64,000 nt of DNA from the NCBI GenBank assembly GCA_016182045.1, contig JACOYE010000008.1:64502-128501 (forward strand). The letters are read 5' to 3'. The position numbers and the translations under genes are program-made. Each line of letters begins with the position of its first letter. Within the stretch, counting starts at the first letter, position 1. Shown one piece after another: positions 41,911 through 63,275 of this stretch. The notes beneath the pieces were generated by a model. That model did not search any database and was not told the origin of the DNA. It worked only from the letters and a program-made list of their open reading frames with translations. This DNA comes from Candidatus Microgenomates bacterium (lineage in GTDB: Bacteria > Patescibacteriota > Microgenomatia > Daviesbacterales > UBA10151).

Positions 41911-42000
41911 CCCCTTTCTTTAATAGTTAACTTAAGCATTACATGTAAATTAGGAGGTTGTCAAATATCTCGCTCTTAAGTCCCACCGAAACTATACTTG

Positions 42001-42871: not shown

Positions 42872-43045
42872 ATGGCTAAAAAAGGTAAAAGACAATTATT
42901 TATTTTACAGTGTTCTGTTTGTAAAAACAGGAATTATACCAGTTCGAAAAACCCCACAAACAGTAAAGATCGGCTTATATTGAACAAATTTTGTAAACAC
43001 TGCCGCCGACAAACCGAACATACTGAAGTTAAAATTGGAAAGTAG
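42872..43045 (+). CDS. rpmG: 50S ribosomal protein L33 (Zn-ribbon type)
   Basis: 57 aa, below the ORF-track size cut-off; MAKKGKR…CSVCKNRNY…KFCKHCRRQTEH…. Confidence 0.8.
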   Translation: MAKKGKRQLFILQCSVCKNRNYTSSKNPTNSKDRLILNKFCKHCRRQTEHTEVKIGK

Positions 43046-43174
43046 TTACGTTTTTGCGAAGGTCCTTATTTTTTGCTGCGTTTTTCCTTTTTCCAAAGAG
43101 TGGGGGCAACAACTATAGAGATGGCCAGTAGTATGATTGCTAAAATTAGATAGAAAGATTGTAATTCACTCATA

Positions 43175-43396
43175 TTATTTCCTTATCAGAATCATGCTCA
43201 GTAATAAGAATGCTGCTGTTAGTACTAATCCTAATGTTAGGTCAAATACATTAAACTTGTCAACTCTGAATATGTTTGGTATTACTAATGACGCTACAGA
43301 AACCAAAGATAAATTAGATAAAAACTCAGATAGCCTATCTAATTGTTTATCATTCAGCTCAGGAATAATATCCATCTTTGTTATATAATACATCAT
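43175..43396 (-). CDS. hypothetical small membrane protein (doubtful)
   Basis: 73 aa ORF; 3' end runs into tRNA-Trp; a ~35-aa TM ORF also lies at ~43076-43183 (-). Confidence 0.2.
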   Translation of the reverse strand: MMYYITKMDIIPELNDKQLDRLSEFLSNLSLVSVASLVIPNIFRVDKFNVFDLTLGLVLTAAFLLLSMILIRK

Positions 43397-43463
43397 ACAA
43401 AGGGGTGTAGCTCAGTTGGTAGAGCACTGGTCTCCAAAACCAGCGGTCGGAGGTTCGACTCCT
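43391..43463 (+). tRNA. tRNA-Trp (anticodon CCA)
   Basis: acceptor AGGGGTG/CGCCCCT (one G-U), anticodon loop CTCCAAA, T-arm GGAGG-TTCGACT-CCTCC, discriminator G. Confidence 0.9.
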
Positions 43464-43482
43464 CCCGCCCCTGCTTTTAAAT

Positions 43483-45483
43483 TTATAGTTTGTTTAATCT
43501 GTATATATCTTTTCTATATCGTACATCTAATATTTCAAATGTTCTGCTACCATTATCAGAATCCAATTCTCTAAGTAAAACTCTTGCTCCTTTTGGTACG
43601 GTACAACCAATTACGAGTTTAAATCTTGGTGTACCATCGTGGCTAGGAGTTCTTAAAGGTCCCCATTTTGCACCAGTTCCCTTTTCGTTATACTCTCTTA
43701 TAGCATTCCCAATTATCTCTTTATCAACGCTTGACACATGTCTTAACAAATCATCTAATTTTTCATCTTCCGGTATAACAATTTGATGTTTGATACCTGG
43801 ACGCTCAGATAACTGAGCAAAAGATAAGTTGATAAAAGAAGTTGGGGATGCCTGTTGTCTTTGCTCAGACCTAACTTCCTTTCTCAATCCATAGATGGAA
43901 TCAACAAATCTTTCTCTTTTTATTGGTTGACTTGGTTGAACAACTACTGTTGAACCTGATTTTGTGGAAATTCCATATTCCTCTTCTACTTGCTGGCGCA
44001 ATACCCAAAGAATATTCATTGTCTTCACCATTAACTCATCCTGAAACATCTTAACTTCCTCCTCATCCTCAATTTTCGGGTCATCTAAAATGTTCCATTC
44101 GATGGTATTATTTGATGTGTCTACGATGAGTGCGACTTCTGCTTCCTCTCCTGTGTCGCTTTCATAATTTAATATGCAGGCAAATCTTTTAGGATTATAC
44201 TGATCAAAACCCACTATTAAACTCTGAGGGGGATATAAATTACCCCAATTAATTTTTTCTGGATCAATTTCATAATCTCTTTGAAATGCCACCTTTGGCA
44301 ACTTTGCCAGAATGGCCCAAAATTGACTTGTTGAGGGAATCACCTCCTTAAATCTATCAGGCATGGGAGTAGTATCCAAAAAAGTAGGCATATCATCTTT
44401 AGTTACTATTTTAAATTGGGAAGCTTCCTGAGCATATTCCATTATTGAATCTATCAAAAGTTGGTAAAAAGTATCTTCCTTTCCTTCTTTTATCATTTTT
44501 TGAGATCGACGATATATATCAAAGATAGAATCGTATCTATTCAAGCCCATGATCTGCAAAGTTAGTATTCGGATAGTCTTATTATCTAATCGTAGTTTCT
44601 CTTCAAAATAAGTTTTTAGTTCAAAATATCCAGGAGAATTAGGATTAAATAGTATGGACTTAACTGCTTTCTTTATCTCAATCACCTTATCACAAAGTAA
44701 TTTCGACATCTTAGCTGCTTCTCTTAGAAGTGGCGGTAGTTGAGGTGAAATATCAACAAATTCTAGGCCATCTGTTGTTGACATAGAACCGATTGTATTT
44801 GGTAAAACCCCAATTGCTTGCTTAGTCATGTTGGGAAAGGCAGCCTTTGGGTAGGATTGGTTTTGTTGGAAAATTTCATCTGAAGCTTGCTGGTAAGAAC
44901 CGGGATTAACATCACCATCAACTAAAGCTGCTTTAAGTAGAAAGTCTAAATAAGGTATTGGTGAAGTTCTCTTGCTGTGGAAATTAACAAAGTCTCTTAG
45001 AGAAATTCCATTTATCTCGATTGTGTTGACTATAAAGTTCCCAAAAGACATTAATGGAGCCAGTACATTAAATTTTTCTTCAAATTGATTTCTTTTAGAT
45101 AATCTTTGTAATTCCTGAACTACTGTTTCGTTGACCAGTCCTGCTCCTGCCACTAAACCGTGGGTAGTTTGAACCATTCCCACGGTTAGTCCCACACCAC
45201 CAAATCTATTAAATTCAGATGCCAATTGTGTACATAAAGTGTTGAGTTCATCCAATTTTTGGGTTAAATTCCAGAATCTTTTTTCATCTTGATCGCTTAA
45301 AAAAAATGGTCGGAAATAAGCAGTTTTTACAGCATCAACAAATGACTCATATTCTCTGTTGCGTTCCCCCTCATCATATAAAGGTGGGGTTGTAGGACGT
45401 TTTGCTAACTCATCCAAGCCCGTTATGATGTTTGTCTTGTCTTGCTCCTTCATAAGTCCATATTTTAACATACCTGAAGTCAA
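43483..45483 (-). CDS. large hypothetical protein with a C-terminal RelE/ParE-like toxin-fold domain
   Basis: 666 aa; last ~90 aa (…PRFKLVIGCTVPKGARVLLRELDSDNGSRTFEILDVRYRKDIYRL) match RelE/ParE (…YRLRVGDYR…ILRVGHRKDIY); N-terminal ~570 aa unrecognised. Confidence 0.6.
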   Translation of the reverse strand: MTSGMLKYGLMKEQDKTNIITGLDELAKRPTTPPLYDEGERNREYESFVDAVKTAYFRPFFLSDQDEKRFWNLTQKLDELNTLCTQLASEFNRFGGVGLTVGMVQTTHGLVAGAGLVNETVVQELQRLSKRNQFEEKFNVLAPLMSFGNFIVNTIEINGISLRDFVNFHSKRTSPIPYLDFLLKAALVDGDVNPGSYQQASDEIFQQNQSYPKAAFPNMTKQAIGVLPNTIGSMSTTDGLEFVDISPQLPPLLREAAKMSKLLCDKVIEIKKAVKSILFNPNSPGYFELKTYFEEKLRLDNKTIRILTLQIMGLNRYDSIFDIYRRSQKMIKEGKEDTFYQLLIDSIMEYAQEASQFKIVTKDDMPTFLDTTPMPDRFKEVIPSTSQFWAILAKLPKVAFQRDYEIDPEKINWGNLYPPQSLIVGFDQYNPKRFACILNYESDTGEEAEVALIVDTSNNTIEWNILDDPKIEDEEEVKMFQDELMVKTMNILWVLRQQVEEEYGISTKSGSTVVVQPSQPIKRERFVDSIYGLRKEVRSEQRQQASPTSFINLSFAQLSERPGIKHQIVIPEDEKLDDLLRHVSSVDKEIIGNAIREYNEKGTGAKWGPLRTPSHDGTPRFKLVIGCTVPKGARVLLRELDSDNGSRTFEILDVRYRKDIYRLNKL

Positions 45484-45667
45484 TAATCAAACCTATAGTG
45501 ATTTGGGGTAGAAGCGACTAGCTAACTAAATCTTGATTTTCCCTATAATAACTTCCAACATAGTTTATCAGGGCGTGCATAAATAACATAGCTGACGAAC
45601 TCAAGAAAATAATTAAGCAAAGAAGCTGTAGGTGGAGCGATAGCCAAAGCAATGGGAGAAATAATTT

Positions 45668-46066
45668 TTACCAGACTACATTCAAACCGTAATCTTTGTA
45701 GTCAGTAAAATCCTGGTCTTGAGTGAGTAAATAGTAATCTTTACTGATAGCTTGCCAGGCCAGCATACAATCAAATGGGTCTTTGTCTCCAAATTTAGGC
45801 AGTTTATAAAAAGAAGCTGCTATTTCTGCATCCAACTTTAAGATCTCAAAACCGCTATCCTTGGCAACGAACGGCAGTTTATCCGGCAATATACCTATCA
45901 AATCGAGTTTTCCAAGTGAATATTTAAGAGAGATTTCCCAAAAAGTTATGGCGCTGACCATTTTTGTTAACTGCGGATCAGACAAAATATCTCTGACTTT
46001 TTTGGTAATTTTTTTGGAAGAAAATAAAACGTACAAAAATGTATGTGTGTCAACAAGATAATTCAC
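45668..46066 (-). CDS. vapC: PIN-domain toxin VapC (second copy)
   Basis: 132 aa; LVDTHTFLY…TQDQDF acidic residues. Confidence 0.8.
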   Translation of the reverse strand: MNYLVDTHTFLYVLFSSKKITKKVRDILSDPQLTKMVSAITFWEISLKYSLGKLDLIGILPDKLPFVAKDSGFEILKLDAEIAASFYKLPKFGDKDPFDCMLAWQAISKDYYLLTQDQDFTDYKDYGLNVVW

Positions 46067-46299
46067 GATTTTAAAAAATCCTCATCTGTCAATTTAAAAC
46101 TACTGTGTATTTTAAAAGAAGCTTTACCTTCTAACAATCCTATTTTAAACTTTGTTTGCTTAAGATTCTGATATGGCACTAGTGCAGCTACCTTTTTTTT
46201 GTTTTTGCCATAGGTGATACCAATACTCTCGCCTTTGAGCACTTTCATCAACACTTCAGAGAATTTTGATTTAAACTGTCCTACAGTCATTTGATACAT
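46063..46299 (-). CDS. type II antitoxin (Phd/YefM-like), partner of the second VapC
   Basis: start placed at MYQMTV (ORF-track start 46338 lies inside the operator palindrome); 4-bp overlap with vapC. Confidence 0.6.
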   Translation of the reverse strand: MYQMTVGQFKSKFSEVLMKVLKGESIGITYGKNKKKVAALVPYQNLKQTKFKIGLLEGKASFKIHSSFKLTDEDFLKS

Positions 46300-46322
46300 A
46301 TTAGATACAATTAAACAACTTT

Positions 46323-46339
46323 CTTGACAACTTGTCAAG
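46323..46339. promoter_or_regulatory. perfect palindrome CTTGACAACTTGTCAAG (operator/-35 of the antitoxin promoter; TTTAAT -10 at 46315-46310 on the minus strand)
   Basis: read directly; promoter geometry gives a leaderless antitoxin transcript. Confidence 0.5.
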
Positions 46340-46420
46340 TTATTTTTTCCAGGTTTAAGTCCTGGCGCCCATGCTTGACAGAACTTGACAGAAAGAGAAT
46401 AAACATATTAAATAATTGGC

Positions 46421-47017
46421 GTGAGAAAAGAGCTAATATTAATAGGTCTAGTTCTAGTCAGTATAGTTGTAGTTTCTGCCATTGGCATCTTTCTTTCAAG
46501 AAGAACAAATCCAACTCCCTCTCCCACCCCAAATTCAGGATTAACACTTACCAACCAATTTTTACCCGAGGTCAATACTCAAACCAACTATCCTACTGAG
46601 GTAGGTCCTGATTGGGAAACATACGAAAATACTAAATACGGTTATTCCATCAAATATCCGCCTTTTTGGGCCACCATAATTAATGTCACTCCCACATCTG
46701 GCAAGGAAACTTTGGAAACAGCCACCAGTTTGGATATTTTTGATTCCGCTGCTCAAAAAAGCTATCCGGATGGAGTGATGACCATCCAATACTTATCCAC
46801 TGCGCCCTCCTCGCCTGCCTCCTTTTCCCGATCAGAAATCACTTTAAACGGCCTCAAGGTACAAAAATTTGCGGGTACTGAAGATAACCTTCATATAGAA
46901 ATATATCTTATTCCTTCCGGTGATGACGTTATTGAAATAGAATTCAGATATCTTCCAGAAGATGCTATTGTCCAAACCTTTACCGCCATGCTACAAACCT
47001 TCCAACCAACCAAATAA
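46421..47017 (+). CDS. hypothetical secreted/membrane-anchored protein
   Basis: 198 aa; N-terminal TM anchor, Pro/Thr-rich linker. Confidence 0.45.
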   Translation: MRKELILIGLVLVSIVVVSAIGIFLSRRTNPTPSPTPNSGLTLTNQFLPEVNTQTNYPTEVGPDWETYENTKYGYSIKYPPFWATIINVTPTSGKETLETATSLDIFDSAAQKSYPDGVMTIQYLSTAPSSPASFSRSEITLNGLKVQKFAGTEDNLHIEIYLIPSGDDVIEIEFRYLPEDAIVQTFTAMLQTFQPTK

Positions 47018-47019
47018 TA

Positions 47020-47745
47020 TTAAAAATTAACTCTGATTCTGGCAGATTGAATTTGAATCTCCACCCCCTCTGTGCTTTTAATCTGTAGGGTATATGTCTT
47101 TTTGCCGGAGGGCAAGGTAAAATTGTAGGTGGTCTGCCAACCAAAAGCATCTGAGGTGGTGGAAACTTCCCCCTTGATAGCGCTGGTGTCTGTCACATTA
47201 AATAACCTGGCGTAGGCAGTACCTGACTTTTGGGTCAGTCTAAAATTGACTTCCAGCTGCATGTTGGCATACCCCGGGTATTCAGCTGGATCAATAGTGA
47301 CCAGATAATTAGCATTGCTTGTCCAATCTCTATCTCCACCTCCACCCCCCGAGCCTAAAGGAATATAAGCTGTGGCAGACTTTGAGCTGGTTGATTGGGT
47401 AGTAGTTTCCCCTTTTTCTAAATTTGACACTCTCACTTTAAGCTCTGTGACTACCGCTTCAACTCCTTTTAGTCTTTGATCAAGATTTTGACTTAGGGGG
47501 GCAGCTTTCAGATCGTTAACCTCAGAAACTAAATCGGTGACAGTTTTTTCCAGAGCCTTAACATTATCCTCCACCGAAGCCTCAGGCAAAGTTTTCGGCA
47601 CTTCAATAGGTTCGTCGAAAACTTCCTTAGTAGTTTGGGAAGAAGCAGGAGAAACCACATTGGAACTGGAGACAAAGAATCTAAAATAAATTAGCCCTCC
47701 AGCCAAAACCAAAACCACCAAAAGGGGGAGCAGGATTTTTAACAT
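47020..47745 (-). CDS. hypothetical secreted/membrane-anchored protein (coiled coil + beta-rich C-domain)
   Basis: 241 aa; N-terminal TM anchor; convergent with the previous gene. Confidence 0.45.
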   Translation of the reverse strand: MLKILLPLLVVLVLAGGLIYFRFFVSSSNVVSPASSQTTKEVFDEPIEVPKTLPEASVEDNVKALEKTVTDLVSEVNDLKAAPLSQNLDQRLKGVEAVVTELKVRVSNLEKGETTTQSTSSKSATAYIPLGSGGGGGDRDWTSNANYLVTIDPAEYPGYANMQLEVNFRLTQKSGTAYARLFNVTDTSAIKGEVSTTSDAFGWQTTYNFTLPSGKKTYTLQIKSTEGVEIQIQSARIRVNF

Positions 47746-47842
47746 AATCTAACAATAACAACTTTAAAACAATCTTTCAAATGAAGAAGTAGCTTAGCTG
47801 TCTCTCTTTACACATCCCCAAACTCTAGGTTAAGATAAAATT

Positions 47843-49135
47843 ATGCCCCTGAAGCCAGAACCAAAACATGATCATGGAATTTTAAAATTCCCTCAAGGTT
47901 TCCTATGGGGAGCAGCCACCTCTGCCCACCAGGTGGAGGGTAATAATGTCCATAATGACTGGTGGGCATGGGAGCAGGGCAAGCCCTTTGACTTACGCTC
48001 AGGGCAAGCCTGCGATCAGTATCATCTCTATGAACAGGATTTTGATCTGGCCAAATCCTTAAATCACAATGCTCACCGCTTATCCATTGAATGGTCAAGG
48101 ATAGAACCTCATGAAGGTCAGTTCAATGAGAAGGAAATTGAACACTACAAAAAGGTCTTAAAAGCCTTAAAGCAGCGCGGTTTCACGGTGATGCTGACCC
48201 TTTGGCACTTTACCCTACCAAAGTGGGTGGCAGATGAGGGAGGCTGGGAAAACGGCCAAACTGTTAAGTATTTTGAGAGATTTGTGCGCAAAATTGTACC
48301 GGAGATTGCAGACTATGTTGACTTATGGGTGACCATCAATGAACCGGGTGTTTATATTTATGAAACTTATATAGCCAGGCAGTGGCCTAATGCCAAAAGG
48401 AGTCTTTGGGGACAAATCAAATCCTTTCTTAATTTGGCTTCGGCCCACAAAAAGGTGTACAATTTTTTGCATCAAAGTTTCCCGGCGGGCAAACCAGTCG
48501 GTATGGCCAACAATATCCTATCTTTTGAACCTTATCACAAACACTCCATCATAGAACAACTGGCTGTTTCCTTAAATGATATCTTTATCAATCATTTATT
48601 CTATTTCTTAACAGGCAAGACTCATGATTTTTTGGGAATAAATTACTACTTTCACGTCCGTTTTAAACACAGAATGCTACTGCCTCAAGCCGTAAACACC
48701 ACGGCTCAAACTCATGACATTTCCGATTTAGGCTGGGAGGTTTTTCCGGAAGGTATTTTTGATGTTTTAACCGATCTGTCTGATGATCTGCCCATTTATA
48801 TTACAGAGTGTGGCATAGCTTCCACCAATGATGATAGAAGAAATAGGTTTTTAATCACCTATTTGCAGGAAGTGGCCAGAGCCATCAAAGTGGGGGTAAA
48901 TGTGAGAGGCTTTTTCTATTGGTCTTTGATTGATAATTTTGAATGGCAGATGGGATTTGAACCCAGATTCGGCCTTGTTGAAGTAGATTATCAAACACAG
49001 CAAAGAATCATCCGTCCTTCTGCCAAAGTTTATGCTGAGATTATTGCCAGAGGGGGCATCCCTCATAATTTGATGCGGTTTATCGGACACACAGTTACAG
49101 CTAAAGAAGTTCTGGCCAGAAAATCCCATCCATGA
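47843..49135 (+). CDS. GH1-family beta-glucosidase
   Basis: 430 aa; FLWGAATSAHQVEG N-terminal signature, TINEPGV acid/base, YITECG nucleophile region. Confidence 0.85.
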   Translation: MPLKPEPKHDHGILKFPQGFLWGAATSAHQVEGNNVHNDWWAWEQGKPFDLRSGQACDQYHLYEQDFDLAKSLNHNAHRLSIEWSRIEPHEGQFNEKEIEHYKKVLKALKQRGFTVMLTLWHFTLPKWVADEGGWENGQTVKYFERFVRKIVPEIADYVDLWVTINEPGVYIYETYIARQWPNAKRSLWGQIKSFLNLASAHKKVYNFLHQSFPAGKPVGMANNILSFEPYHKHSIIEQLAVSLNDIFINHLFYFLTGKTHDFLGINYYFHVRFKHRMLLPQAVNTTAQTHDISDLGWEVFPEGIFDVLTDLSDDLPIYITECGIASTNDDRRNRFLITYLQEVARAIKVGVNVRGFFYWSLIDNFEWQMGFEPRFGLVEVDYQTQQRIIRPSAKVYAEIIARGGIPHNLMRFIGHTVTAKEVLARKSHP

Positions 49136-50973
49136 ATCATATCCCTTTTACCATTCTTGCATACTTTTTAAACAGTGTCTCAGTCACCATTAACAAACTG
49201 ATCTTGGTTAAATCCCTGATCGATCCCCTAATTTATATCTTCTACATCAGTTTAGTCTCTCTTTTGGCCATACTGATCCTGCCTTTTACCAAAATACCCT
49301 CTCCTTTAGTGTTTATCTTATCATCCCAGTCAACTTTGCTTTGGACTGGGGGAGCATATTTTATGTTCAAGGCCTTAAGGTCGGGTCAAGTCCAAAGAGT
49401 CATCCCGGCAATTGGTACCCTCACCCCTTTAATTTTACTGATGATGACCTCCTTCACGGAAAAACTGTCCCTTAATCAAATTTGGGCAGTGGGATTTTTA
49501 ATTGCCGGACTTATCTTTTTAACCATGGGCGACTGGAAGGGCAAACTCACTCTTTGGGAAATTGCTTTTGAGGTAATCTCCTCATTCCTTTTTGCCATCT
49601 CATATATCCTTCTTCGCCAAGCTTATCTTCTGGAGAATTTCCTGACAGTTTTGGTGTGGTCCAGACTGATCTTGGTGCCTCTGGGGTTGGTCATCTTGTT
49701 AACTCCCCTCTTAAGAAGAAAAATTTTTCAGTCGGGCTCTCATCCTCTGTCTCTGGCCGGCAAGATGGGGCTTATTTTTATTGTTGGACAAATCTTCGGT
49801 GGCGCCTCAGAACTACTTTTAACTTTCTCTATCTCTCTTGCTAATCCTGCCTTGGTCAACTCCCTTCAGGGCACCCAGTACATCTTTCTACTTATCTTTG
49901 TTTTGGTTTTATCCAAAAAATTTCCCGATGTATTTAAAAAAGAACGTGCCCTTTTCTTTTTGGCCAAGCTGGTCGGTATCGTTTTAATAGTATCCGGTCT
50001 TTATATCTTGGCTTTTTCTCCTACCAGCGGCACCGCAAAGGTTGACCAATTACCCAAATGGGGCTTAAGCTTTTCTCCCAGATATGCTAAGTCTCTGGGA
50101 CTTGATCCTGAGATCGTCTATCTTAATGTGCTTAATGAGCTGAAGGTGAAAAGATTAAGGCTGCCTGTTTATTGGGATGAAGTGGAAATTTACCCGGATC
50201 AGTTTAACTTCTCCGCTTTAGACTTTTACCTTAATGAGGCTTTAAAGAAAAAGGTGGAGATAATCTTGGTGGTGGGATATAAACAGCCCAGATGGCCGGA
50301 ATGCTACCCACCTTCCTGGGTCAATAGTTTAACCGGTTCGGAAAAGAAGATGAGAGTTCTGAAACTTTTAAAGGGGGAAATTTTATATTTCAAACAATTT
50401 ACCAATATCACTACCTGGCAGGTGGAGAATGAGCCTCTTTTTAACTGGGGCATTTGTGACCCTGAGCTTAGGGATGGGCAATTCCTCAAACAGGAAATTG
50501 ATTTGGTTAAAGCTCTCGACCAAAGACCCATTTTAATAACAGATGCCGGGGAGTTATCTTTGTGGATCGATCCCATCAAATTGTCCGATCTTTTCGGCAC
50601 CACACTTTACAGGCAGGTTTGGTCCCCCTACTTTGGGCAGCTAACTTATCCCTTACCGCCGATCTTTTATACCTTAAAGGATAATTTGGTTCGCATCTTC
50701 TCCGCAAATAAAGACAGCACGACCATCATCTCCGAACTTCAGGCAGAACCCTGGTTGGCCCGGGGTGTCACCATCACCGAGGTCAGTGCAGCAAAGCTTA
50801 ATAAACAGCTGCCTATCAACAAACTTAAAGGCAATTTTGAATATGCCAAAGAGACCAATTTTCCTCAAATTTATTTGTGGGGAGCGGAATGGTGGTATTA
50901 TATGGAGAAACAAGGCTATCCCCAGTACCTGGAATATGCCAAGACAATTTTTAGTAATGATTCACAAAATTAG
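49132..50973 (+). CDS. fusion protein: DMT/EamA-like 10-TM domain + C-terminal TIM-barrel glycoside hydrolase (GH5-like)
   Basis: 613 aa; C-domain …VYWDEVE…, …WQVENEP… (GH5-type NEP acid/base), …ITDAGE…. Confidence 0.55.
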   Translation: MNHIPFTILAYFLNSVSVTINKLILVKSLIDPLIYIFYISLVSLLAILILPFTKIPSPLVFILSSQSTLLWTGGAYFMFKALRSGQVQRVIPAIGTLTPLILLMMTSFTEKLSLNQIWAVGFLIAGLIFLTMGDWKGKLTLWEIAFEVISSFLFAISYILLRQAYLLENFLTVLVWSRLILVPLGLVILLTPLLRRKIFQSGSHPLSLAGKMGLIFIVGQIFGGASELLLTFSISLANPALVNSLQGTQYIFLLIFVLVLSKKFPDVFKKERALFFLAKLVGIVLIVSGLYILAFSPTSGTAKVDQLPKWGLSFSPRYAKSLGLDPEIVYLNVLNELKVKRLRLPVYWDEVEIYPDQFNFSALDFYLNEALKKKVEIILVVGYKQPRWPECYPPSWVNSLTGSEKKMRVLKLLKGEILYFKQFTNITTWQVENEPLFNWGICDPELRDGQFLKQEIDLVKALDQRPILITDAGELSLWIDPIKLSDLFGTTLYRQVWSPYFGQLTYPLPPIFYTLKDNLVRIFSANKDSTTIISELQAEPWLARGVTITEVSAAKLNKQLPINKLKGNFEYAKETNFPQIYLWGAEWWYYMEKQGYPQYLEYAKTIFSNDSQN

Positions 50974-51128
50974 TTCCATTTAGTTAATCTGACATTATTT
51001 GATATTATTTGATACTAAAAGAGATACTTTATACGCACATAAGAATTATTTAAAATAAGCTTGCTGATTCAGTTCGCTATTCTTGCCCGGATCAAAGTCA
51101 AATCTTTTGTTTAACCAAAGAGTCAATC

Positions 51129-53390
51129 ATGGCAAGGAAAAGAGCAGGCACAACCAGTTTAACACCTTATCCTCTCAAGGTTGTCCTTCTTTTGATTCAA
51201 TTTATCCTGGTTAAGATTGGTTCCATACCCCTAAATATTGTTAAGTCTTTTATTAACATTATTAATATCTTTATAAAATCACTTCTTAATTTGAAATTAT
51301 CTCGCCACCGTGGCCGGCCCAGAACTACTCCCTTTATTCCCTTTTATTTAAGAAGGCTGAATAAAAATATTTGGGCCAAAATCCCATTGAAAATTAAAGC
51401 CTCTTTTGCCTTTATCATTTTGGTAACCTTAGTCTTTTTATACACCTCATTCATCTTAACTGCAGCATACCAGCTTCCCTCTCCTGACAGGTTGATCACT
51501 CCCCAGCAACCACTCACCACCGAGTTTTATGATCGAAGTGGAAAATTGCTTTACCGTCTTTATGAAGGCAGAAACCGCTACTTAGTCAAACTGGAAGATT
51601 TACCTGTCTTTCTTATTCAAGCCACCATTGCCATTGAGGACAAAAACTTTTACCGCCATCCCGGGTTTGATCCATTGGCCATAGCCAGAGCAGTCTATTA
51701 TAATGTCGCCCAAGGCTACCAAGAAGGAGCATCGACCATCACCCAACAACTGATCAAAAATAGCCTGCTGACGCCCGAAAAGACTATTTCCAGAAAAATT
51801 AAAGAGATCATATTGGCTTTTTGGGCGGAAAGGATCTATTCCAAAAATCAAATTCTTCAGATGTATTTTAATGAAGCTCCGTACGGTGGGCCTGCCTGGG
51901 GCATTGAAGCTGCCTCGCAAACTTATTTTGGTAAAGGGGCCAAAGATCTAGATCTTTCGGAAAGTGCTTTTTTGGCAGGACTACCTGCCTCCCCCACCCA
52001 GTTTTCCCCTTATGGTACAAACCCAACTCTTTCAAAAATCAGGCAGGAACAGGTTCTACAAAGAATGCTGGAAGAAGGATATATAACCCAAACCCAAAAA
52101 GAGCAGGCTTTAAGTCAGCCTTTGGCCTTAAGGCCGCCTGTTAACAATATCCAGGCTCCTCACTTTGTATTTTATGTACGAGATTTATTGGCTCAAAAAT
52201 ATGGACTGAGGGTAATATCTCAAGGGGGACTTAAAATCCAAACCAGCCTGGATTTGTCCTTACAACAAGAGGTGGAAAAAATTGTCTCTTCCGAAATTGA
52301 CAAATTATCTGCTTTAAATGTCAAAAATGGGGCTGCCATGGTTTTGGATGCCAAAACAGGCCAGATTTTGGCTATGATGGGATCAAGAGATTACCGTTAT
52401 CCCGGATTTGGCAACTTTAATGTTACCTTGGCCATCAGACAGCCAGGCTCATCTATCAAACCTATCACCTACGCTACTGCATTTAAAAAGGGATTCTCGC
52501 CCGGAAATACCATCTTAGATACCCCAGCTGTTTTTAAGGATCAATGGGGTAATTCTTATGCACCTGTAAATTATGATGGCAGATTCAGAGGCCCTGTCTC
52601 TATCCGTCAAGCTTTGGCCAGCTCATTTAATGTGCCGGCTGTCAAAATGCTTGCCACAATTGGCCTGGATAGCATGATTCAAACAGCCAAAGATTTGGGG
52701 ATTACCACTTTTGATGATTCTTCTCGCTTTGGTCTATCCTTAACTTTGGGTGGAGGGGATGTCAGGATGATTGATATGATGGGGGTTTATGCCACCCTTT
52801 CTCAACTGGGAGTTTACAAAAAACCTACTCCAATTATTAAAGTTACAGATTCTTCCGGCAATATCTTGGAGGAGTACAAAGATGAGGGCAAACAAGTTCT
52901 AGAAGAAGGTGTTGTCTATCTTATTACCAATATCTTGTCCGATGATCGGGCCCGCAGTTTAGCTTTCGGATCCAATTCCCTTCTTAATTTAGGACCAAAC
53001 GTGGCTGTTAAAACCGGTACTTCTGATAAGAAAAGGGATAATTTGACTTTTGGATACACAACTGATTTTGTGGTTGGGGTTTGGGTTGGTAATCCTGATA
53101 ACTCCCCCATGAATCCCCAACTGACCTCTGGTATTACCGGTGCTGCTCCGATTTGGAATAAGATTGCCAAAATAATGCTTTCCAAAATTCCGAGTAAAGC
53201 ATTTACTCGACCGGAGGGAATTATTGAAATTTCGGTTGATGGCAGAAAAGATTTGGCTATTGCCGGAAATATTCCCAAAGGTTTGGTTAGGGTCAAACCT
53301 GAAGGTGACAAACTGATCTTCTCGGACTCTTTCTCCTCTTATGCCACTTCCTCAGCCCAAGCTGCCATAAAAAATGGACTTACCAATTAA
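51129..53390 (+). CDS. class A penicillin-binding protein (bifunctional GT51 transglycosylase / transpeptidase)
   Basis: 753 aa; GT51 motifs (IAIEDKNFYRHPG, …TITQQL…), transpeptidase SSIKP / SFN / KTGT. Confidence 0.85.
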   Translation: MARKRAGTTSLTPYPLKVVLLLIQFILVKIGSIPLNIVKSFINIINIFIKSLLNLKLSRHRGRPRTTPFIPFYLRRLNKNIWAKIPLKIKASFAFIILVTLVFLYTSFILTAAYQLPSPDRLITPQQPLTTEFYDRSGKLLYRLYEGRNRYLVKLEDLPVFLIQATIAIEDKNFYRHPGFDPLAIARAVYYNVAQGYQEGASTITQQLIKNSLLTPEKTISRKIKEIILAFWAERIYSKNQILQMYFNEAPYGGPAWGIEAASQTYFGKGAKDLDLSESAFLAGLPASPTQFSPYGTNPTLSKIRQEQVLQRMLEEGYITQTQKEQALSQPLALRPPVNNIQAPHFVFYVRDLLAQKYGLRVISQGGLKIQTSLDLSLQQEVEKIVSSEIDKLSALNVKNGAAMVLDAKTGQILAMMGSRDYRYPGFGNFNVTLAIRQPGSSIKPITYATAFKKGFSPGNTILDTPAVFKDQWGNSYAPVNYDGRFRGPVSIRQALASSFNVPAVKMLATIGLDSMIQTAKDLGITTFDDSSRFGLSLTLGGGDVRMIDMMGVYATLSQLGVYKKPTPIIKVTDSSGNILEEYKDEGKQVLEEGVVYLITNILSDDRARSLAFGSNSLLNLGPNVAVKTGTSDKKRDNLTFGYTTDFVVGVWVGNPDNSPMNPQLTSGITGAAPIWNKIAKIMLSKIPSKAFTRPEGIIEISVDGRKDLAIAGNIPKGLVRVKPEGDKLIFSDSFSSYATSSAQAAIKNGLTN

Positions 53391-53415
53391 GATATGATAT
53401 AAAGATTCGACTCTT

Positions 53416-54567
53416 ATGATGAGTCGCATTGAAGCAAAAGGGGGATCTTCCTCCTTGATTAGGTCAATTCAAGCAGGTCTTGGAAGAGGACTTAATTTGA
53501 TAGGTGCCTGGAAAGGATCTCTTTTGAATTCGGAGATTGCTCATACGGTTCTACTCCCCTCTCAACCAAATATTTCAAAATATATACAACAAGTGGAAGC
53601 AGAAGAGGTTATCCTCAATCAGGGAAGTATTGAAATTATAGAAAGATTGGTTGGGCATCCTTTAGATCGAGGGCGGTACCGACAATTGAAACAACTTTTG
53701 GGTGGTAAAAAATCCAACTATCAAAGGATGGAAAAAGACGCTGTTGTTGAAGTCAGACTAATAGATGGTGTGGATATTGCCCGCATTCCCTCTCTTTTCC
53801 CTTTTCCTGAAGAGTTACCCAAAGTAGTAGCTATTACCAGCTTTGACTATTTACTGTCCGATGTTTATCTACATCATTCATTCTCAACTGTAACTTTGGG
53901 AGGTGAACCATTATCTTTATGGGATGATGAGGGTAAAGCATATCCACCTGATGATCTTTTAAAAGATTCTATTGAAGCACTCTATCCAGGAGATTCTATA
54001 AAATTTTCCAACGGTGATGGCTTAACTATGACCACAACAATACTGCCAATACAAGAAGGCAAGCCTATGCCACAATTTGTTTTGGCAGTTGAAAAAAATA
54101 GGGCAGCAAATTTCCAAGCTACAATTGCTGAAGCAAGAAGGAGAGATCTTGCAATCTTATGGAAGGTAAAAGAAGCACATTTGGGGCTGATGGAAGCGCT
54201 ATTTTGGCGAGACCTGAACGATCCGACAAAGCGGGTTTTCATTCAAGATAGAAGCGGCAATCAAACCACCTTTGATAATAAGGAGCTAGGACGATTCCGG
54301 TTTGCCCGCGAAATTGTGCATGGAACATTTGATAGCGTGATTGAATATACCAGAGGAGACCTCGAAGAAGAGTGGCAAAAGGATATGCAGGCTATTAAAA
54401 CGAATGATCCTTTTCCCCGCCACTTTAGACTGCTCACTGTTGGGATTGGTGATAATTATGAAACAGGAAGATCCCTTGCGAAGTACGCTTTGGCTAAAGT
54501 TGAAGGTAAATACATCATCCAGTGTCCACCAGTGGCAGTGACATTTTCTTATAACCAAACTAGATAG
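53416..54567 (+). CDS. hypothetical protein
   Basis: 383 aa; no recognisable family. Confidence 0.45.
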   Translation: MMSRIEAKGGSSSLIRSIQAGLGRGLNLIGAWKGSLLNSEIAHTVLLPSQPNISKYIQQVEAEEVILNQGSIEIIERLVGHPLDRGRYRQLKQLLGGKKSNYQRMEKDAVVEVRLIDGVDIARIPSLFPFPEELPKVVAITSFDYLLSDVYLHHSFSTVTLGGEPLSLWDDEGKAYPPDDLLKDSIEALYPGDSIKFSNGDGLTMTTTILPIQEGKPMPQFVLAVEKNRAANFQATIAEARRRDLAILWKVKEAHLGLMEALFWRDLNDPTKRVFIQDRSGNQTTFDNKELGRFRFAREIVHGTFDSVIEYTRGDLEEEWQKDMQAIKTNDPFPRHFRLLTVGIGDNYETGRSLAKYALAKVEGKYIIQCPPVAVTFSYNQTR

Positions 54568-54583
54568 CTATTTCGGGTCCTCT

Positions 54584-54612
54584 TGACAATCTAATTGGCA
54601 TCTATTACCATT
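54584..54612 (+). promoter_or_regulatory. sigma70-like promoter (TTGACA-17-TACCAT) placing the TSS at the ATG of the next ORF (leaderless)
   Basis: read directly. Confidence 0.35.
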
Positions 54613-54618
54613 GGGAAA

Positions 54619-54921
54619 ATGTCAAATCCAGAAACAGGGTTTCAAGATGGTGATGATGGTGATTTAAATTTTGCAGAAGCTCTTGAACGATATCTCTCCC
54701 TTCCAGGTGATGAACCTCCAAAAGATCCTAGTGAGCCCGGTCCAACAAGGGTGGAGAAATTACCTGCCGGAAATTTTAAAACAAATCCAGATCGATTTTC
54801 TGTACGCCCGGGTGGTGATATCACCAGAAGGAAAATAACAGGAGGCCCTAGTAGAATAAGACCAGGTATACCTCATCGCCTAAGGCGAGATAGAGGCAGG
54901 CAAAATTCTTTTGATTATTAG
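54619..54921 (+). CDS. hypothetical Pro/Gly/Arg-rich protein
   Basis: ATG-initiated form of ORF 54595-54921; GC-rich; no family. Confidence 0.35.
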   Translation: MSNPETGFQDGDDGDLNFAEALERYLSLPGDEPPKDPSEPGPTRVEKLPAGNFKTNPDRFSVRPGGDITRRKITGGPSRIRPGIPHRLRRDRGRQNSFDY

Positions 54922-54933
54922 AATTGGAACATT

Positions 54934-55335
54934 TTAATTTAACACCACCCAGCCTCTTAAATCCTTTTTGGGGATTTTTACAGGTGAGGTAATAAAGCGG
55001 GAAGATTCTCCGATAAAGATTAAGGTACCGTAGCGGGAGTCCGCCTTTTTCTTCCAGTAGGTTTCATCTACAGCCAGTCTCTTTCCATATTTTCCCCTGA
55101 TTTCCCTAATATCCCCTAAATCCAGCCCATCATAAAAGATCACTTTTTTTACTCTAAATTGGCCAATTATATCTCCTCCTGAAGGTTTTATATAAACCAG
55201 ATCTCTGGCAGAAATTTGTCCGAAAGGAGGATCACGTCTTTTAGAAAATCTACTTTCTATAGTCTTTTTACCGGAAAGTATTAAACTCCCCCCTTCCCCC
55301 TTAAAAATAGCCAGATGTTTCCCCATTTGGGGCAA
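54934..55335 (-). CDS. ASCH (PUA-like) domain protein
   Basis: 133 aa; …HLAIFKGEGGSLILSGKKTIESRFSK… matches the ASCH N-terminal pattern. Confidence 0.45.
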   Translation of the reverse strand: MPQMGKHLAIFKGEGGSLILSGKKTIESRFSKRRDPPFGQISARDLVYIKPSGGDIIGQFRVKKVIFYDGLDLGDIREIRGKYGKRLAVDETYWKKKADSRYGTLIFIGESSRFITSPVKIPKKDLRGWVVLN

Positions 55336-55387
55336 TTATAGCATTAAGTAATGACTTGTAAATCTATCTAATCTACTATAGAATCTG

Positions 55388-55909
55388 TTGCAAATGGCAG
55401 AGACTCCATGGAGAAATACTTCGCTTCTTTCTAGGGAAAGAGAGGTCGCAATGAATCCTTCGGATAACCATCATCCAACTCCCCTGCTTGACCATACTCA
55501 ACCACTTACCTTTACTCCTGAGGATGCCTTATATCTGGGGCAGTTGCTTCTCGTTGATAGATTCGGGGAGAAAGAGTGGCAACTAAAACAACTAAAAATA
55601 AATTTATCTGAGTTGGAGCGAATGAAAATTAGAGCTTTGGTGGAAAGACCAGGGGATATTAATATTGACGCTTATTTTGATCCTGAAGGATATTTTAACT
55701 CGCAATGGAAAGGTAGAATACCCGATTTATTAACCCGCTTTGCCGCATTTAATGCTGATGAGCGTCAAGTTTTTTTGGAAAATAATCAAAATGCCCAATT
55801 GATGCTGGGACCTTTATCTCATCTTTCTTTAGGAGAACTGCGATTTTGGCACCAGATCTCGCATAATGATCTTGAATTGGATAGACGTACTAATGAATCT
55901 TCACGCTAA
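55388..55909 (+). CDS. hypothetical protein
   Basis: 173 aa; no family. Confidence 0.4.
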   Translation: MQMAETPWRNTSLLSREREVAMNPSDNHHPTPLLDHTQPLTFTPEDALYLGQLLLVDRFGEKEWQLKQLKINLSELERMKIRALVERPGDINIDAYFDPEGYFNSQWKGRIPDLLTRFAAFNADERQVFLENNQNAQLMLGPLSHLSLGELRFWHQISHNDLELDRRTNESSR

Positions 55910-55945
55910 ATCCAAAGTTGTTTTAAACCCTATCCCTACCCTATT

Positions 55946-56392
55946 TTATTTGGAAGTATCAACAGAACCATTTTCTGTATGTCCATTAGATGAAAACTGT
56001 CCATTCTTATTAAAGACAATGTGCTCCATTTGTCTCATGAGCTGTTTTGCCATAGGATATACAGGGAGATAAACATCGTTTAGTATAACACCTGTCCAGC
56101 ATCCTACCCGTTCAATTATGTCCTTAAATTCTTCTTCTTTAATCTTATCCTGCTCAGTAATATCACCGCCAGCAGCTACACGATCCCACCCTTTTGCTAA
56201 AGCAATTACGTTCTCAAGTACTTCTTCTCTCCGATGTGGCTTAGATCCATTTTGATATGGCCATTCGTTATATGACTCTTCTGAACTTTGTTTCTCTAAT
56301 TCTATGCTGGCCAAAGACCGATTAATACCTTCTTTATTCTCTGTACGCATAGTACCCATATGAGCACCTATCTTTACTATAGGATAATACAA
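55946..56392 (-). CDS. hypothetical protein
   Basis: 148 aa; no family. Confidence 0.4.
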   Translation of the reverse strand: MYYPIVKIGAHMGTMRTENKEGINRSLASIELEKQSSEESYNEWPYQNGSKPHRREEVLENVIALAKGWDRVAAGGDITEQDKIKEEEFKDIIERVGCWTGVILNDVYLPVYPMAKQLMRQMEHIVFNKNGQFSSNGHTENGSVDTSK

Positions 56393-56489
56393 TTATACTC
56401 CCTCTTGTCAAGAAATGCAAATTTAGTAGGTTTTTATATGATGTAATACGAATTTTGAGACCTTTTAAAAAGCCCAAAATGGAGGATAT

Positions 56490-56780
56490 TTGTTGTATAC
56501 TATAAGTATGACTGAGTTAGCGAAATTTTATCCATCAGAACAAAACTTGGGGAAGAATTGCAGTTTTTGGGATTTGAAAGGAAGATTTGCCGGTTGCAAC
56601 TTTCCTAGAGTAGAAATGCAGGGAAGAACCAGTTGCGAGAGGATGATTGATGATGTGTGTTTATTACTAAAAGACGGTCGCAGACCCTCCAGTTTAACTG
56701 AGGAGCAAATCAGAGAATTAAAGTTGAGAATACCTAAGTTTGATGAAAAACACTATATTCCCCCTGGGGATATTTCCTGA
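56490..56780 (+). CDS. hypothetical Cys-containing small protein
   Basis: 96 aa; C…GC…C…C spacing could bind metal. Confidence 0.35.
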   Translation: MLYTISMTELAKFYPSEQNLGKNCSFWDLKGRFAGCNFPRVEMQGRTSCERMIDDVCLLLKDGRRPSSLTEEQIRELKLRIPKFDEKHYIPPGDIS

Positions 56781-56808
56781 ATCCACTGATATTTAGTATA
56801 ATTTATGA

Positions 56809-57264
56809 ATGGAAAGTTCTGAAGTACCAAGTAAAGGAATTAAAGGACTGGAAAAAGTTAAAAGAGGGCTTTCAGAGCTGGGAAACTATTTTAAGGAAAC
56901 ATTCGGTGTAGGTCCTGATAAAGTACCTGCTGAAAAAATTGATCAAGCAGCAGTGGCCAAAGTAATTCTTTATGACACCTTGGCAGAGGGTATGCGTTTG
57001 GGAGATCATTCCCAAATCCCCTTCTCTTTAACTACCCTGCTTGACAACATGGGCCATGTAGTCATGTCCCCAACAGATAATCCCAGAGAGAAATTTCCAG
57101 ATGAATATTTGGCAGTTAGAAGGCAGCTTGATATATTGGTGGGGGACAACATTTTAGTAATTGTTCCTCTTAAGGAACCTGACTCTAATGGAGAAAGACT
57201 TTATTATCAAGTTGTTAACAAAGATGCCTTAAAGAAGATTGCTTCAAAACAATCTCAAAAGTGA
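56809..57264 (+). CDS. hypothetical protein
   Basis: 151 aa; no family. Confidence 0.4.
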   Translation: MESSEVPSKGIKGLEKVKRGLSELGNYFKETFGVGPDKVPAEKIDQAAVAKVILYDTLAEGMRLGDHSQIPFSLTTLLDNMGHVVMSPTDNPREKFPDEYLAVRRQLDILVGDNILVIVPLKEPDSNGERLYYQVVNKDALKKIASKQSQK

Positions 57265-57290
57265 GGGCGGTAACCTTAGTTCTCGACTGC

Positions 57291-57318
57291 TTGACAAAAC
57301 TATAGTATGTGATACTAT
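57291..57318 (+). promoter_or_regulatory. sigma70-like promoter (TTGACA-16-TACTAT) ~12 nt upstream of the FabD-like ATG
   Basis: read directly. Confidence 0.4.
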
Positions 57319-57330
57319 GGTAGCCTCATT

Positions 57331-58335
57331 ATGGTAGAAACAGCAACACTAAAAAGACCTGCCTCATCAACTGCTGAGTCTTTGGAAATACCAGCTGCCA
57401 TTCTTTTCCCAGGACAAGGACTTCCACCAAAAGAGATTTGTTCCTACTATCAATTATTAACTGAACTAAATCCTGCCTTAACCACAAGGTATCTATCTTT
57501 GGCCCAGCAAGCACTGGAAAAAATCTCAGGTTCCCCCAGTTTTAACATTGAGACAGCTTTAAAAGATGCATCTTCACCTGATTTTAGAAAAACCTCCTTT
57601 GTCCAACCGGTAGTGTATTCTTTAAGTGTGCTCGCTTATGAAATAATGCGACCCAGATTAAGAGAGAGGAATATTATTCCCGATGTTATGGCCGGACACA
57701 GCCTTGGTGAATATTCTGCCATGACCGCGGCAGGTGTTTTTCCCTTCGAGGAAGGAATTGAAATTGTCACCTATAGAGGTAAGGTTATGCAAGAAGCTTG
57801 TGATGAGAATGAAAGTAGTCTAACCAGCATCAGCGGTCTAAATTTAGAAACGGTTCGAGATGAGATTTGCTTCCAAACTGGGGCAGAAATAGCTTTAGTT
57901 AATGCTCCTGATTTAATAGTGGTTGGTTCCCGTCCTGATCAAATTCCAAAAATTAAGGCAGTGGCTGATCAAATAGCAGGACAAAGTGTGAGGGTTGTAA
58001 CACTTGAGACAGCGGGAGCCTTCCATACACCTTTTATGATACCAGCGGCCGTAAATCTGGCAAGATTTTTAGCAAATTATGAATTTACCGATCCGCAATA
58101 CCGATTCGTCAATAATTATACAGGAGGTTTAGTAGAAAGCGGTGTAACTTTACGTGATCATTCATCAGAGAGTATGACCAGGCCAGTTTGGTGGGCTAAA
58201 TCTTTACAAACTATGAAAGAGTTAGGGAGTAAGACCTTTTTAGAATCAGGCCCAGGTGTGTCACTGAAACAAATAAATAAGAGAAATGGTATTGGAGAGG
58301 ATCAAACCAAAAACATAGTTGATATTTCCCCATAA
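57331..58335 (+). CDS. fabD: malonyl-CoA:ACP transacylase-like acyltransferase
   Basis: 334 aa; ILFPGQG and GHSLGEYSA motifs. Confidence 0.75.
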   Translation: MVETATLKRPASSTAESLEIPAAILFPGQGLPPKEICSYYQLLTELNPALTTRYLSLAQQALEKISGSPSFNIETALKDASSPDFRKTSFVQPVVYSLSVLAYEIMRPRLRERNIIPDVMAGHSLGEYSAMTAAGVFPFEEGIEIVTYRGKVMQEACDENESSLTSISGLNLETVRDEICFQTGAEIALVNAPDLIVVGSRPDQIPKIKAVADQIAGQSVRVVTLETAGAFHTPFMIPAAVNLARFLANYEFTDPQYRFVNNYTGGLVESGVTLRDHSSESMTRPVWWAKSLQTMKELGSKTFLESGPGVSLKQINKRNGIGEDQTKNIVDISP

Positions 58336-58357
58336 CTTTTGTTATACTTGACAAAGT

Positions 58358-58381
58358 GGGTCGAATAATCGACCCTTTTTT
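58358..58381 (+). terminator. Rho-independent terminator-like hairpin GGGTCGA-ATAA-TCGACCC + TTTTTT
   Basis: read directly; 22 nt after the FabD-like stop, 6 nt before secE. Confidence 0.5.
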
Positions 58382-58386
58382 AATAA

Positions 58387-58581
58387 ATGCCCAACATTAT
58401 TTCATTTTTTAAAGAAGTTAGGGAAGAGTTAAATAAGGTGGCCTGGCCCACCAGGGAACAAACTGTCCGCTATACCATTTTGGTGGTTTTAGTAGCAGTT
58501 GTGGTGGGATTATTCTTAGGAGGCCTGGATTATATCCTAACTGCTCTCACCTCTTTTATATTAGGAAAATATGGACGATAA
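58387..58581 (+). CDS. secE: preprotein translocase subunit SecE
   Basis: 64 aa; amphipathic N-term (KEVREELNKVAWPTREQ) + single TM; immediately upstream of nusG. Confidence 0.75.
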   Translation: MPNIISFFKEVREELNKVAWPTREQTVRYTILVVLVAVVVGLFLGGLDYILTALTSFILGKYGR

Positions 58582-60692: not shown

Positions 60693-60756
60693 GATTTCCC
60701 TTCTCAATTTCGGGTCATTGACAAACTAGCTTATAATCTGATAGTCTTTCCGCAAC

Positions 60757-63225: not shown

Positions 63226-63275
63226 TAAATAATCGGCCAGTTGACAAGGTTAAATATTTGTGTGAACAATAAATT

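Follow-up and report, generated by a model that had tools for sequence, protein, structure and literature searches.

The 64,000-nucleotide stretch of DNA analyzed here (hereafter, the window) comes from a Candidatus Microgenomates bacterium of the order Daviesbacterales (GenBank assembly GCA_016182045.1, contig JACOYE010000008.1, positions 64,502 to 128,501 of the forward strand). Within it, the genes for tRNA-Trp and SecE are separated by an interval of 14,912 nt (positions 43475-58386) that contains 17 open reading frames (ORFs). This interval is probably a conserved cell-envelope gene cluster interspersed with three slots of integrase-free gene turnover. Its first layer, composed of sec241, a glycoside hydrolase family 1 (GH1) enzyme, a membrane/GH-A protein, a penicillin-binding protein (PBP), and an ASCH-domain protein, would have taken its place between tRNA-Trp and secE earlier than the divergence of the sampled Daviesbacteria, and has the appearance of ordinary cell-envelope housekeeping. 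The second layer would be strain- or species-specific cargo lodged at three junctions of the first, which across genomes would consist mostly of toxin–antitoxin (TA) pairs and fast-evolving ORFans.

The separation of roughly 15 kb had been pointed out in a preliminary description made from the sequence alone, and gene placements by ARAGORN, Rfam, and Pfam show that it is real. The end of tRNA-Trp was given there as 43463, which is 11 nt short of its actual position at 43474. The same description assumed that tRNA-Trp and secE are canonically adjacent, and this arrangement is indeed seen in at least nine outgroup loci. The interval is bounded by the following features.

42872-43045: rpmG, upstream of tRNA-Trp
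43401-43474, forward strand: tRNA-Trp(CCA), left boundary (ARAGORN; Rfam RF00005, 72 bits)
58387-59275, forward strand: secE–nusG, right boundary (PF00584, 1.3e-20; PF02357, 8e-30, plus KOW), with secE at 58387-58581, nusG at 58571-59275, and rplK and rplA downstream

The evidence for an old, shared layer is comparative. Window proteins (by tblastn) and tRNAs were mapped onto 52 related loci anchored on NusG, one genome per GTDB species, which are cited below by number (L001 and so on). The NusG relatives, together with the names of identical public proteins, assign the window to Candidatus Daviesbacteria (Microgenomates). In the outgroups (Dojkabacteria and others), tRNA-Trp lies within ~0.3 kb of secE/nusG, and rpmG, tRNA-Trp, secE, and nusG are adjacent. 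Twelve Daviesbacteria loci hold all or part of a common backbone, four of them spanning the entire distance from tRNA-Trp to secE. These four (L001, L005, L013, and L014) display the full order rpmG, tRNA-Trp, sec241 (reverse strand), GH1, membrane/GH-A gene, PBP1, ASCH (reverse strand), secE, nusG, rplK, and rplA; the remaining eight (L003, L007, L009, L012, L018, L020, L021, and L026) match it as far as their contigs extend. The backbone genes of the window are listed below.

47020-47745, reverse strand: sec241, an N-terminally anchored coiled-coil protein (hydrophobic segment, residues 1-19)
47843-49135, forward strand: GH1 glycosidase (PF00232, 7e-80)
49132-50973, forward strand: protein with a multi-pass membrane domain and a clan GH-A-like hydrolase domain (membrane/GH-A protein)
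51129-53390, forward strand: class A penicillin-binding protein, PBP1 (Transgly PF00912, 3.6e-59; Transpeptidase PF00905, 1.8e-21)
54934-55335, reverse strand: ASCH-domain protein (PF04266, 3.3e-5)

Homologues of sec241 that are 40-47% identical immediately follow tRNA-Trp in the four complete loci. Those of GH1 (56-77% identical) and of the membrane/GH-A protein (50-57%) each recur at the equivalent position in nine loci, and those of PBP1 (57-67%) lie upstream of ASCH in 12. The ASCH gene itself precedes secE/nusG in 20 loci of the Daviesbacteria clade as well as in the deeper L022 and L048, and appears to be the oldest neighbor of secE. In L014 the backbone stands without extra ORFs of 70 aa or more, and the interval shrinks to ~6 kb. 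A neighbor-joining tree built from NusG, RplK, and RplA places the window inside the main clade, nearest to L003, L006, and L002. L020 falls outside this clade (69% identity over the three proteins), yet carries GH1, the membrane/GH-A gene, PBP1, ASCH, and secE. Because the backbone is in place across Daviesbacteria loci, this outlier included, 45% of the block (6.8 kb) is most readily read as a lineage-wide, vertically inherited gene arrangement.

Most of the protein assignments made earlier for this layer hold. Pfam confirms the GH1, class A PBP, and ASCH calls (7e-80; 4e-59 and 2e-21; 3e-5), and PBP1 combines the anchor (hydrophobic segment, residues 93-111), GT51 domain, and transpeptidase domain by which class A PBPs are recognized. 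Two proteins called secreted, sec241 and the slot gene product sec198 introduced below, each possess a single N-terminal hydrophobic segment. The reading of the protein encoded at 49132-50973 as a "DMT-GH5 fusion" is not specifically supported: the protein has no Pfam match, ~9-10 hydrophobic segments in residues 1-292, and, over residues 337-438, weak PDB matches to GH35, GH10, and PslG of clan GH-A.

The other 11 genes of the block (8.1 kb, 55%) have no tblastn match in the 52 related loci, even at E<1. They occupy three backbone junctions, which we term slots A (tRNA-Trp to sec241, 43475-47019), B (PBP1 to ASCH, 53391-54933), and C (ASCH to secE, 55336-58386).

43483-45483, reverse strand: slot A, p666, a soluble protein of 656-666 aa
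45668-46066, reverse strand: slot A, predicted VapC-like PIN-domain toxin (PF01850, 1.5e-13, residues 3-124)
46063-46338, reverse strand: slot A, predicted Phd/YefM-like antitoxin (PF02604, 2.3e-4, 21.3 bits against a cutoff of 29.8; 78 aa in the public call)
46421-47017, forward strand: slot A, sec198, an N-terminally anchored protein of no known family (hydrophobic segment, residues 5-23)
53416-54567, forward strand: slot B, h383, a soluble ORFan whose start lies 25 nt after the PBP stop
54595-54921, forward strand: slot B, h108, a basic, low-complexity small ORF without family matches
55388-55909, forward strand: slot C, h173, a soluble ORFan (152 aa in the public call)
55946-56392, reverse strand: slot C, h148, a soluble acidic ORFan without matches
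56490-56780, forward strand: slot C, h96, a small four-Cys ORFan without matches, called as a gene in independent assemblies
56809-57264, forward strand: slot C, h151, a soluble ORFan without matches
57331-58335, forward strand: slot C, divergent FabD-like malonyl/acyl transferase (PF00698, 1e-17)
58358-58375, forward strand: terminator-like GC hairpin, a consensus match only (7-bp stem with 5 GC pairs, then TTTTTT)

In 15 relatives, the backbone junctions, including those equivalent to slots A-C, hold 0-4 kb of other ORFs, 48 in number, almost all of which are singletons in an all-against-all BLAST; none of the 48 matches the window cargo. The recognizable products among them are a PIN protein, Gp49/HigB with an XRE-type partner, HepT, a dockerin protein, a sigma70_r4 protein, VanW, and a FabH-like protein. 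In L006 and L015, from which the PBP part of the backbone is missing, AbiEii and AbiEi are encoded at a greater distance upstream of ASCH. The junctions of L014 and L007 are tight. By these comparisons, slots A-C appear to behave as integrase-free gene-turnover hotspots.

The most direct indication of transfer comes from h383 in slot B. A search of 5.8 billion proteins returned h383 itself and a single protein 71% identical to it. On its contig, L055, this homologue stands in the order PBP1 tail, h383 homologue, PaaX_M protein (reverse strand), ASCH (reverse strand), that is, in the same slot with another second gene, the PaaX_M protein taking the position of h108. The L055 host is no nearer to the window than other species are (PBP tail, 62-69% amino acid identity; ASCH tail, 83%). 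Between window and L055, the h383 pair has a synonymous divergence (dS) of 0.42-0.50 and a third-position identity of 73%, as against ~1.2 and 49% for the PBP tail beside it (Fisher p = 9e-6). Since the dS of h383 is far below that of the PBP tail, this cargo would be of more recent origin than the flanking gene, a suggestion that lineages have exchanged DNA at this one slot. Its ratio of nonsynonymous to synonymous divergence (dN/dS) of 0.4-0.5 marks h383 as a real but fast-evolving gene. It has no tblastn match in phage genomes, and neither it nor h173, h148, or h151 has a PDB sequence match; its single-sequence AlphaFold2 (AF2) model is uninformative, with a mean predicted local distance difference test score (pLDDT) of 33.

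A plausible course of events would start with DNA of related Daviesbacteria being taken up and recombined into the chromosome in the conserved flanks or close to them. TA pairs, being addictive, would then be kept, and other cargo would turn over fast. Some arrivals may plug into existing transcription units, as h383 and h108 may have done behind PBP, and as may the FabD-like unit that ends at the terminator-like hairpin. This hairpin stands between the FabD-like gene and secE; h383 and h108 trail PBP1 at gaps of 25 and 27 nt and may ride its transcript.

Several points weigh against this account of an ancestral cluster with turnover slots. Recombination at the flanks is a step that we infer. 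The backbone is not universal: in L006, L015, L010, L011, and L023, the 4-9 kb that precede ASCH or secE are free of PBP/GH genes, the two of these five that were examined, L006 and L015, having AbiEii, AbiEi, PIN, and large ORFans there instead, and rearrangements occur at the 4-9 kb scale too. The "ancestral" status of the backbone depends on a rough neighbor-joining tree of three proteins. "Strain-specific," as applied to h108, h173, h148, h96, h151, and sec198, denotes absence from the family libraries and from the 52 related loci only. The younger age of cargo relative to flank derives from one genome pair and 104 flank codons with near-saturated dS, and selection on synonymous sites could contribute to the low dS of h383. 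Lastly, a native composition, described below, is also expected of old insertions or of transfers from close relatives, and cannot by itself date the cargo.

Four other explanations of the block were weighed against this one. The preliminary description saw in it an accessory genomic island, or a stack of islands, inserted at the tRNA. As in tRNA-associated genomic and pathogenicity islands, the block starts directly 3' of a tRNA (its first gene begins 8 nt after tRNA-Trp), contains accessory genes, and is missing from outgroup lineages, in which the junction is uninterrupted; in addition, TA modules are found in slot A, beside the tRNA, in the window as well as in L013. The remaining hallmarks of such islands are absent. 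Pfam detects neither an integrase nor a transposase domain in the 17 ORFs, and PHROG and PADLOC find none in the unannotated ORFs. A duplicated 3' segment of tRNA-Trp, the trace that integration would be expected to leave, is not present, full or partial, elsewhere in the window: neither a 26-mer nor an 18-mer of this end, with up to 3 mismatches allowed, has a match in the block other than the tRNA, and no long direct or inverted repeats were found around the block. The anticipated shift in composition relative to the flanks did not materialize either. GC is flat at 0.36-0.43 throughout, codon-usage z scores of all block genes against 44 upstream genes range from -1.9 to +1.1, and GC content at third codon positions (GC3) and tetranucleotide distance lie within the window-wide spread. 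Almost half of the block, the 45% that forms the backbone, is held in place clade-wide, and two of the three variable slots lie 10-12 kb from the tRNA, flanked by protein-coding core genes. Relatives with the same gene order and no compositional shift, which the preliminary description had itself named as the observation that would speak against an island, are what the 12 loci and the flat composition provide for the backbone. Because of this conserved order, the native composition, and the lack of an integrase and of attachment site-like repeats, the block is not a tRNA-integrated island. The accessory stack survives weakly, as 11 genes at three junctions; the tRNA-targeted integrative island fails, and one or more classical islands that entered site-specifically at the 3' end of tRNA-Trp and later lost their integrase are very improbable. 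The chance that unrelated contigs were joined during assembly or binning is slighter by far and close to nil. The source is a metagenome-assembled genome, and the contigs of independent assemblies break at identical points with overlaps of just 9-23 nt. Against a chimera, Logan contigs from three sequencing runs cover 43418-48940, 48918-55153, and 55145-58613 at 100% identity and reproduce every gene and both the tRNA-side and secE-side junctions; the two internal break points fall within intact, full-length conserved genes (GH1 and ASCH), across which the order is as in relatives. Because three independent Logan assemblies match the block at 100%, the 15-kb arrangement is not an assembly artefact or binning chimera.

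A third alternative holds that the whole 15 kb is ancestral, that smaller versions arose by differential loss, and that the ORFans are positional orthologues diverged past recognition. It would suit the reductive evolution of genomes of the candidate phyla radiation (CPR), the rapid evolution of the ORFans (h383 dN/dS of 0.4-0.5), and the occurrence of h383 in the same slot of a second species. The slot contents of 15 genomes are nearly all unrelated, however, and differ in number, size, strand, and family (PIN, HigB, HepT, dockerin, and FabH), such that an ancestor would need dozens of genes in its slots; L014 and L007 have tight junctions; and the synonymous divergence of h383 is less than half of that of its flank, the opposite of what co-inheritance predicts. 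We consider differential loss unlikely. The preliminary description also singled out seven hypothetical proteins at 53416-57264, actually six unannotated ORFs plus ASCH, as candidates for one undescribed functional module, for example in defense or biosynthesis, to which the FabD-like enzyme might belong. The ORFs are contiguous, predicted to be soluble, and unannotated; h96, h151, and the FabD-like gene follow one another closely on one strand, up to the terminator-like site; a near relative, L006, has a FabH-like gene in slot C; and an acetyl-CoA carboxylase (ACC) carboxyltransferase is encoded 16 kb upstream. In contrast, ASCH, on the opposite strand, divides the set between two slots and is conserved clade-wide without the others, the genes lie on both strands in convergent and divergent pairs, no PADLOC or PHROG model matched, co-occurrence could not be demonstrated, and the sole member that recurs elsewhere, h383, has another neighbor there. 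The module is unsupported and, in our estimation, quite unlikely; a sub-module confined to slot C is possible but unsupported. The cluster with three turnover slots remains the reading that we prefer.

The three-run short-read contigs share their break points, which lie inside tRNA-Trp (43418), GH1 (48918-48940), ASCH (55145-55153), and nusG (58613). This is the pattern that branching of the assembly graph would yield if co-occurring related strains share these conserved genes.

Of all the cargo, p666 in slot A is the most promising lead of this locus. The preliminary description ascribed a RelE-like C-terminus to this protein, and the assignment is right at the level of the fold, as judged from an AF2 model, and invisible by sequence. 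The model, computed with 68 sequences (pLDDT 88; predicted template modeling score, pTM, 0.76), comprises a helical region (residues 38-353), an alpha/beta region (403-544), and a C-terminal domain (565-663) of beta-alpha-alpha-beta-beta-beta-beta-alpha topology, the predicted structure of which is a RelE/ParE fold. Sequence searches for RelE were negative in Pfam (with the full protein, the isolated domain, and family members) and in the PDB by phmmer and hmmsearch, an hhalign comparison with Escherichia coli RelE gave a probability of 0.2%, and Foldseek against the PDB gave one weak toxin match (probability 0.85). The family itself is sizeable. Exhaustive phmmer recovered 209 representative clusters (50% identity), 68 of them at E<=1e-30, and most listed members are 640-700 aa long and align end to end at 22-35% identity; word-indexed homology searches, with p666 or with the 68-sequence profile, returned only p666 itself. 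Neither p666 nor 67 aligned members have a convincing Pfam match, the family has no PHROG, PADLOC, NCBIfam, or PDB sequence match, and no viral relatives were found among BFVD structures or in IMG/VR. Within the alignment, R634 and R657 are invariant (68/68) and N599 nearly so, position 624 is R or K in 48/68 and V in the window protein, and position 661 is Y, F, or W in 66/68 (F in 19/68); the correspondence of p666 residues to R61, R81, and Y87 of RelE was drawn by strand position only.

In eight genomic contexts, p666 homologues are lone genes amid housekeeping genes, with no shared neighbor that could be a cognate antitoxin or a CRISPR component, and the pair upstream of p666 in the window forms a self-contained Phd-PIN module. 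Two distant homologues, 23-28% identical to the window protein (L056, 10001-11986; L071, 575-2554), both lie near a dihydrofolate reductase (DHFR) gene, followed in L056 by a thymidylate synthase gene and in L071 by an ORF without Pfam call that the end of the contig truncates; this context suggests stable chromosomal inheritance of p666 in some lineages. The nearest analogy is a multidomain RelE effector such as the CARF-RelE protein Cami1 (compare PDB entry 8phb). Unlike RelE/ParE toxins, Cami1 included, p666 belongs to no sequence profile, has its domain fused behind ~560 residues without known relative, lacks a conserved antitoxin or CRISPR neighbor, and admits phenylalanine at the Y87-like position. 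The protein p666 is not a classical RelBE toxin. Tentatively, it could be a new single-chain, translation-targeting effector of CPR-like genomes, in which a RelE-fold RNase or ribosome-binding domain would be tethered to a 560-residue helical and alpha/beta module that senses a signal or restrains the domain in cis and so replaces the antitoxin.

The adjoining genes of slot A had been described as a vapBC pair. The PIN toxin is firm (1.5e-13) and is accompanied by an overlapping antitoxin gene, whose own assignment is weak, falling below the gathering score. As in type II VapBC and Phd-PIN pairs, a small antitoxin gene precedes the PIN gene, its stop overlapping the PIN start by 4 nt according to the coordinates, and the acidic residues D6, E44, D96/D99, and D117/D119 can be seen in the sequence; unlike in those pairs, the antitoxin lies under the Pfam threshold. 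A second Phd and PIN pair in the window (33871-34486, reverse strand) is 60% identical to the slot A pair of L013 (1717-2335), and TA cassettes therefore change location between genomes. At the far end of the slot, sec198 has no family match in Pfam, PHROG, PADLOC, or NCBIfam and no counterpart in the related loci. The slot A ORFs of L001 and L005 were considered as its diverged positional orthologues and rejected, since their sequences are unrelated and without a membrane anchor.

The unannotated ORFs of 53416-57264 are all predicted to be soluble and have no match in Pfam, PHROG, PADLOC, or NCBIfam; for h173, the searches of these four libraries and of the PDB were all negative, and no counterpart was found in the related loci. 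The GC3 of h108, 0.21 against a GC of 0.43, is compatible with a coding frame. A promoter-like site with an 11/12 match lies at 56411-56384, near h148.

The enzyme at the end of slot C had been called an orphan FabD-like acyltransferase, of which the FabD-like character is confirmed. It scores 1e-51 and 176.1 bits against TIGR00128, under the equivalog cutoff of 260.9, and its active-site motifs are readable (PGQGLP, AGHSLGEYS, YRGKVMQ, and AFHTPFM). Its nearest relatives in JGI metagenomes are generic FabDs, 30-34% identical, and the gene has no counterpart in the 52 related loci. It is not fully an orphan: 16 kb upstream, a 640-aa fused AccD/AccA carboxyltransferase (Carboxyl_trans and ACCA domains) is encoded at 39468-41390 on the reverse strand. 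No ORF resembling an acyl carrier protein (ACP) and no other fab gene was found within the window. Taken as a pair, this carboxyltransferase and the FabD-like enzyme are a hint that a CPR genome encodes part of a malonyl-CoA pathway. In L006, a FabH-like gene (beta-ketoacyl-ACP synthase III; 8595-9629, reverse strand) occupies the ASCH-secE slot in which the window has its FabD-like gene. That the two are remnants of one fab operon was considered and set aside as speculation: their strands differ, no genes are shared, and coincidence is possible. To our knowledge, the lineage is generally thought to be without fatty-acid synthesis, and a divergent FabD-like enzyme together with an ACC carboxyltransferase in such a lineage is a lead for CPR biology.

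Outside the interval, small hydrophobic ORFs of 67, 35, and 73 aa lie between tRNA-Thr, rpmG, and tRNA-Trp (42653-42856, forward strand; 43066-43173 and 43175-43396, reverse strand), from which it follows that the upstream part of the canonical cluster has been loosened too. An M23 peptidase and a holin-family protein (Phage_holin_4_1, 7e-8; 41581-42447, reverse strand) are encoded side by side, a short distance upstream of tRNA-Thr(GGT); the combination looks like a pair of lysis genes and could either be left over from a phage or serve to remodel the cell wall. Two 167-aa paralogues of unknown function, 59% identical, are encoded 9 kb apart at 18742-19245 and 28111-28614 (reverse strand), likewise outside the block.

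On the other side of secE, rplL follows rplA by 2.6-5.4 kb in the Daviesbacteria loci examined (L002, L003, L006, L012, L015, L019, and L026), as compared with 0.7 kb in outgroups of canonical order; the window ends before rplL. Positions 60693-64000 carry no rplJ or rplL after rplA, and instead a 149-aa ORFan, an S8 subtilase (61321-63225), and a 151-aa protein. The rplA-rplL stretch is a second variable junction of the same supercluster. The subtilase and the next ORF (63276-63731, forward strand) have a common N-terminal stretch (44% over 45 aa), with a pilin-like G-F-S and hydrophobic segment followed by an "L(F)..LYPKP" motif, which may be a shared secretion or processing signal. More tentatively than we propose an effector role for p666, the junctions of the supercluster that runs from tRNA-Trp through secE to rplL may be preferred landing sites for gene exchange among Daviesbacteria.

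Many hotspots of horizontal gene transfer (HGT) are known to lack integrases and mobile genetic elements (Oliveira et al., 2017; PMC5635113), and genomic islands are known in Patescibacteria (PMC12455944). The present locus is a new example of the already known, integrase-free kind of hotspot. It resembles those previously described in its constant core flanks, in cargo that differs from genome to genome, turns over fast, and is enriched in TA and defense-type genes, in the absence of an integrase or mobile element, and in one case of cargo apparently younger than its flanks (PMC5635113). It differs from them in that three small hotspots (1.5-3.5 kb) are nested in a lineage-specific insertion that splits a near-universal linkage, and in that the genomes compared belong to different species within a class-level CPR clade instead of being strains of a single one, with recombination at the flanks inferred.

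For the scanning of genomes, the locus offers a caution. A break in a conserved linkage beside a tRNA resembles an island and can be an old, lineage-wide rearrangement; comparison with relatives alone separates the ancestral from the truly variable layer. For CPR biology, it provides a concrete case of small, integrase-free turnover slots inside a translation and transcription supercluster, the junctions of which, if this reading is true, would be a tractable system for integrase-free HGT in CPR bacteria. Among the cargo, the p666 family, sizeable, unannotated, and of predicted RelE fold, could represent a new way of wiring a translation inhibitor.

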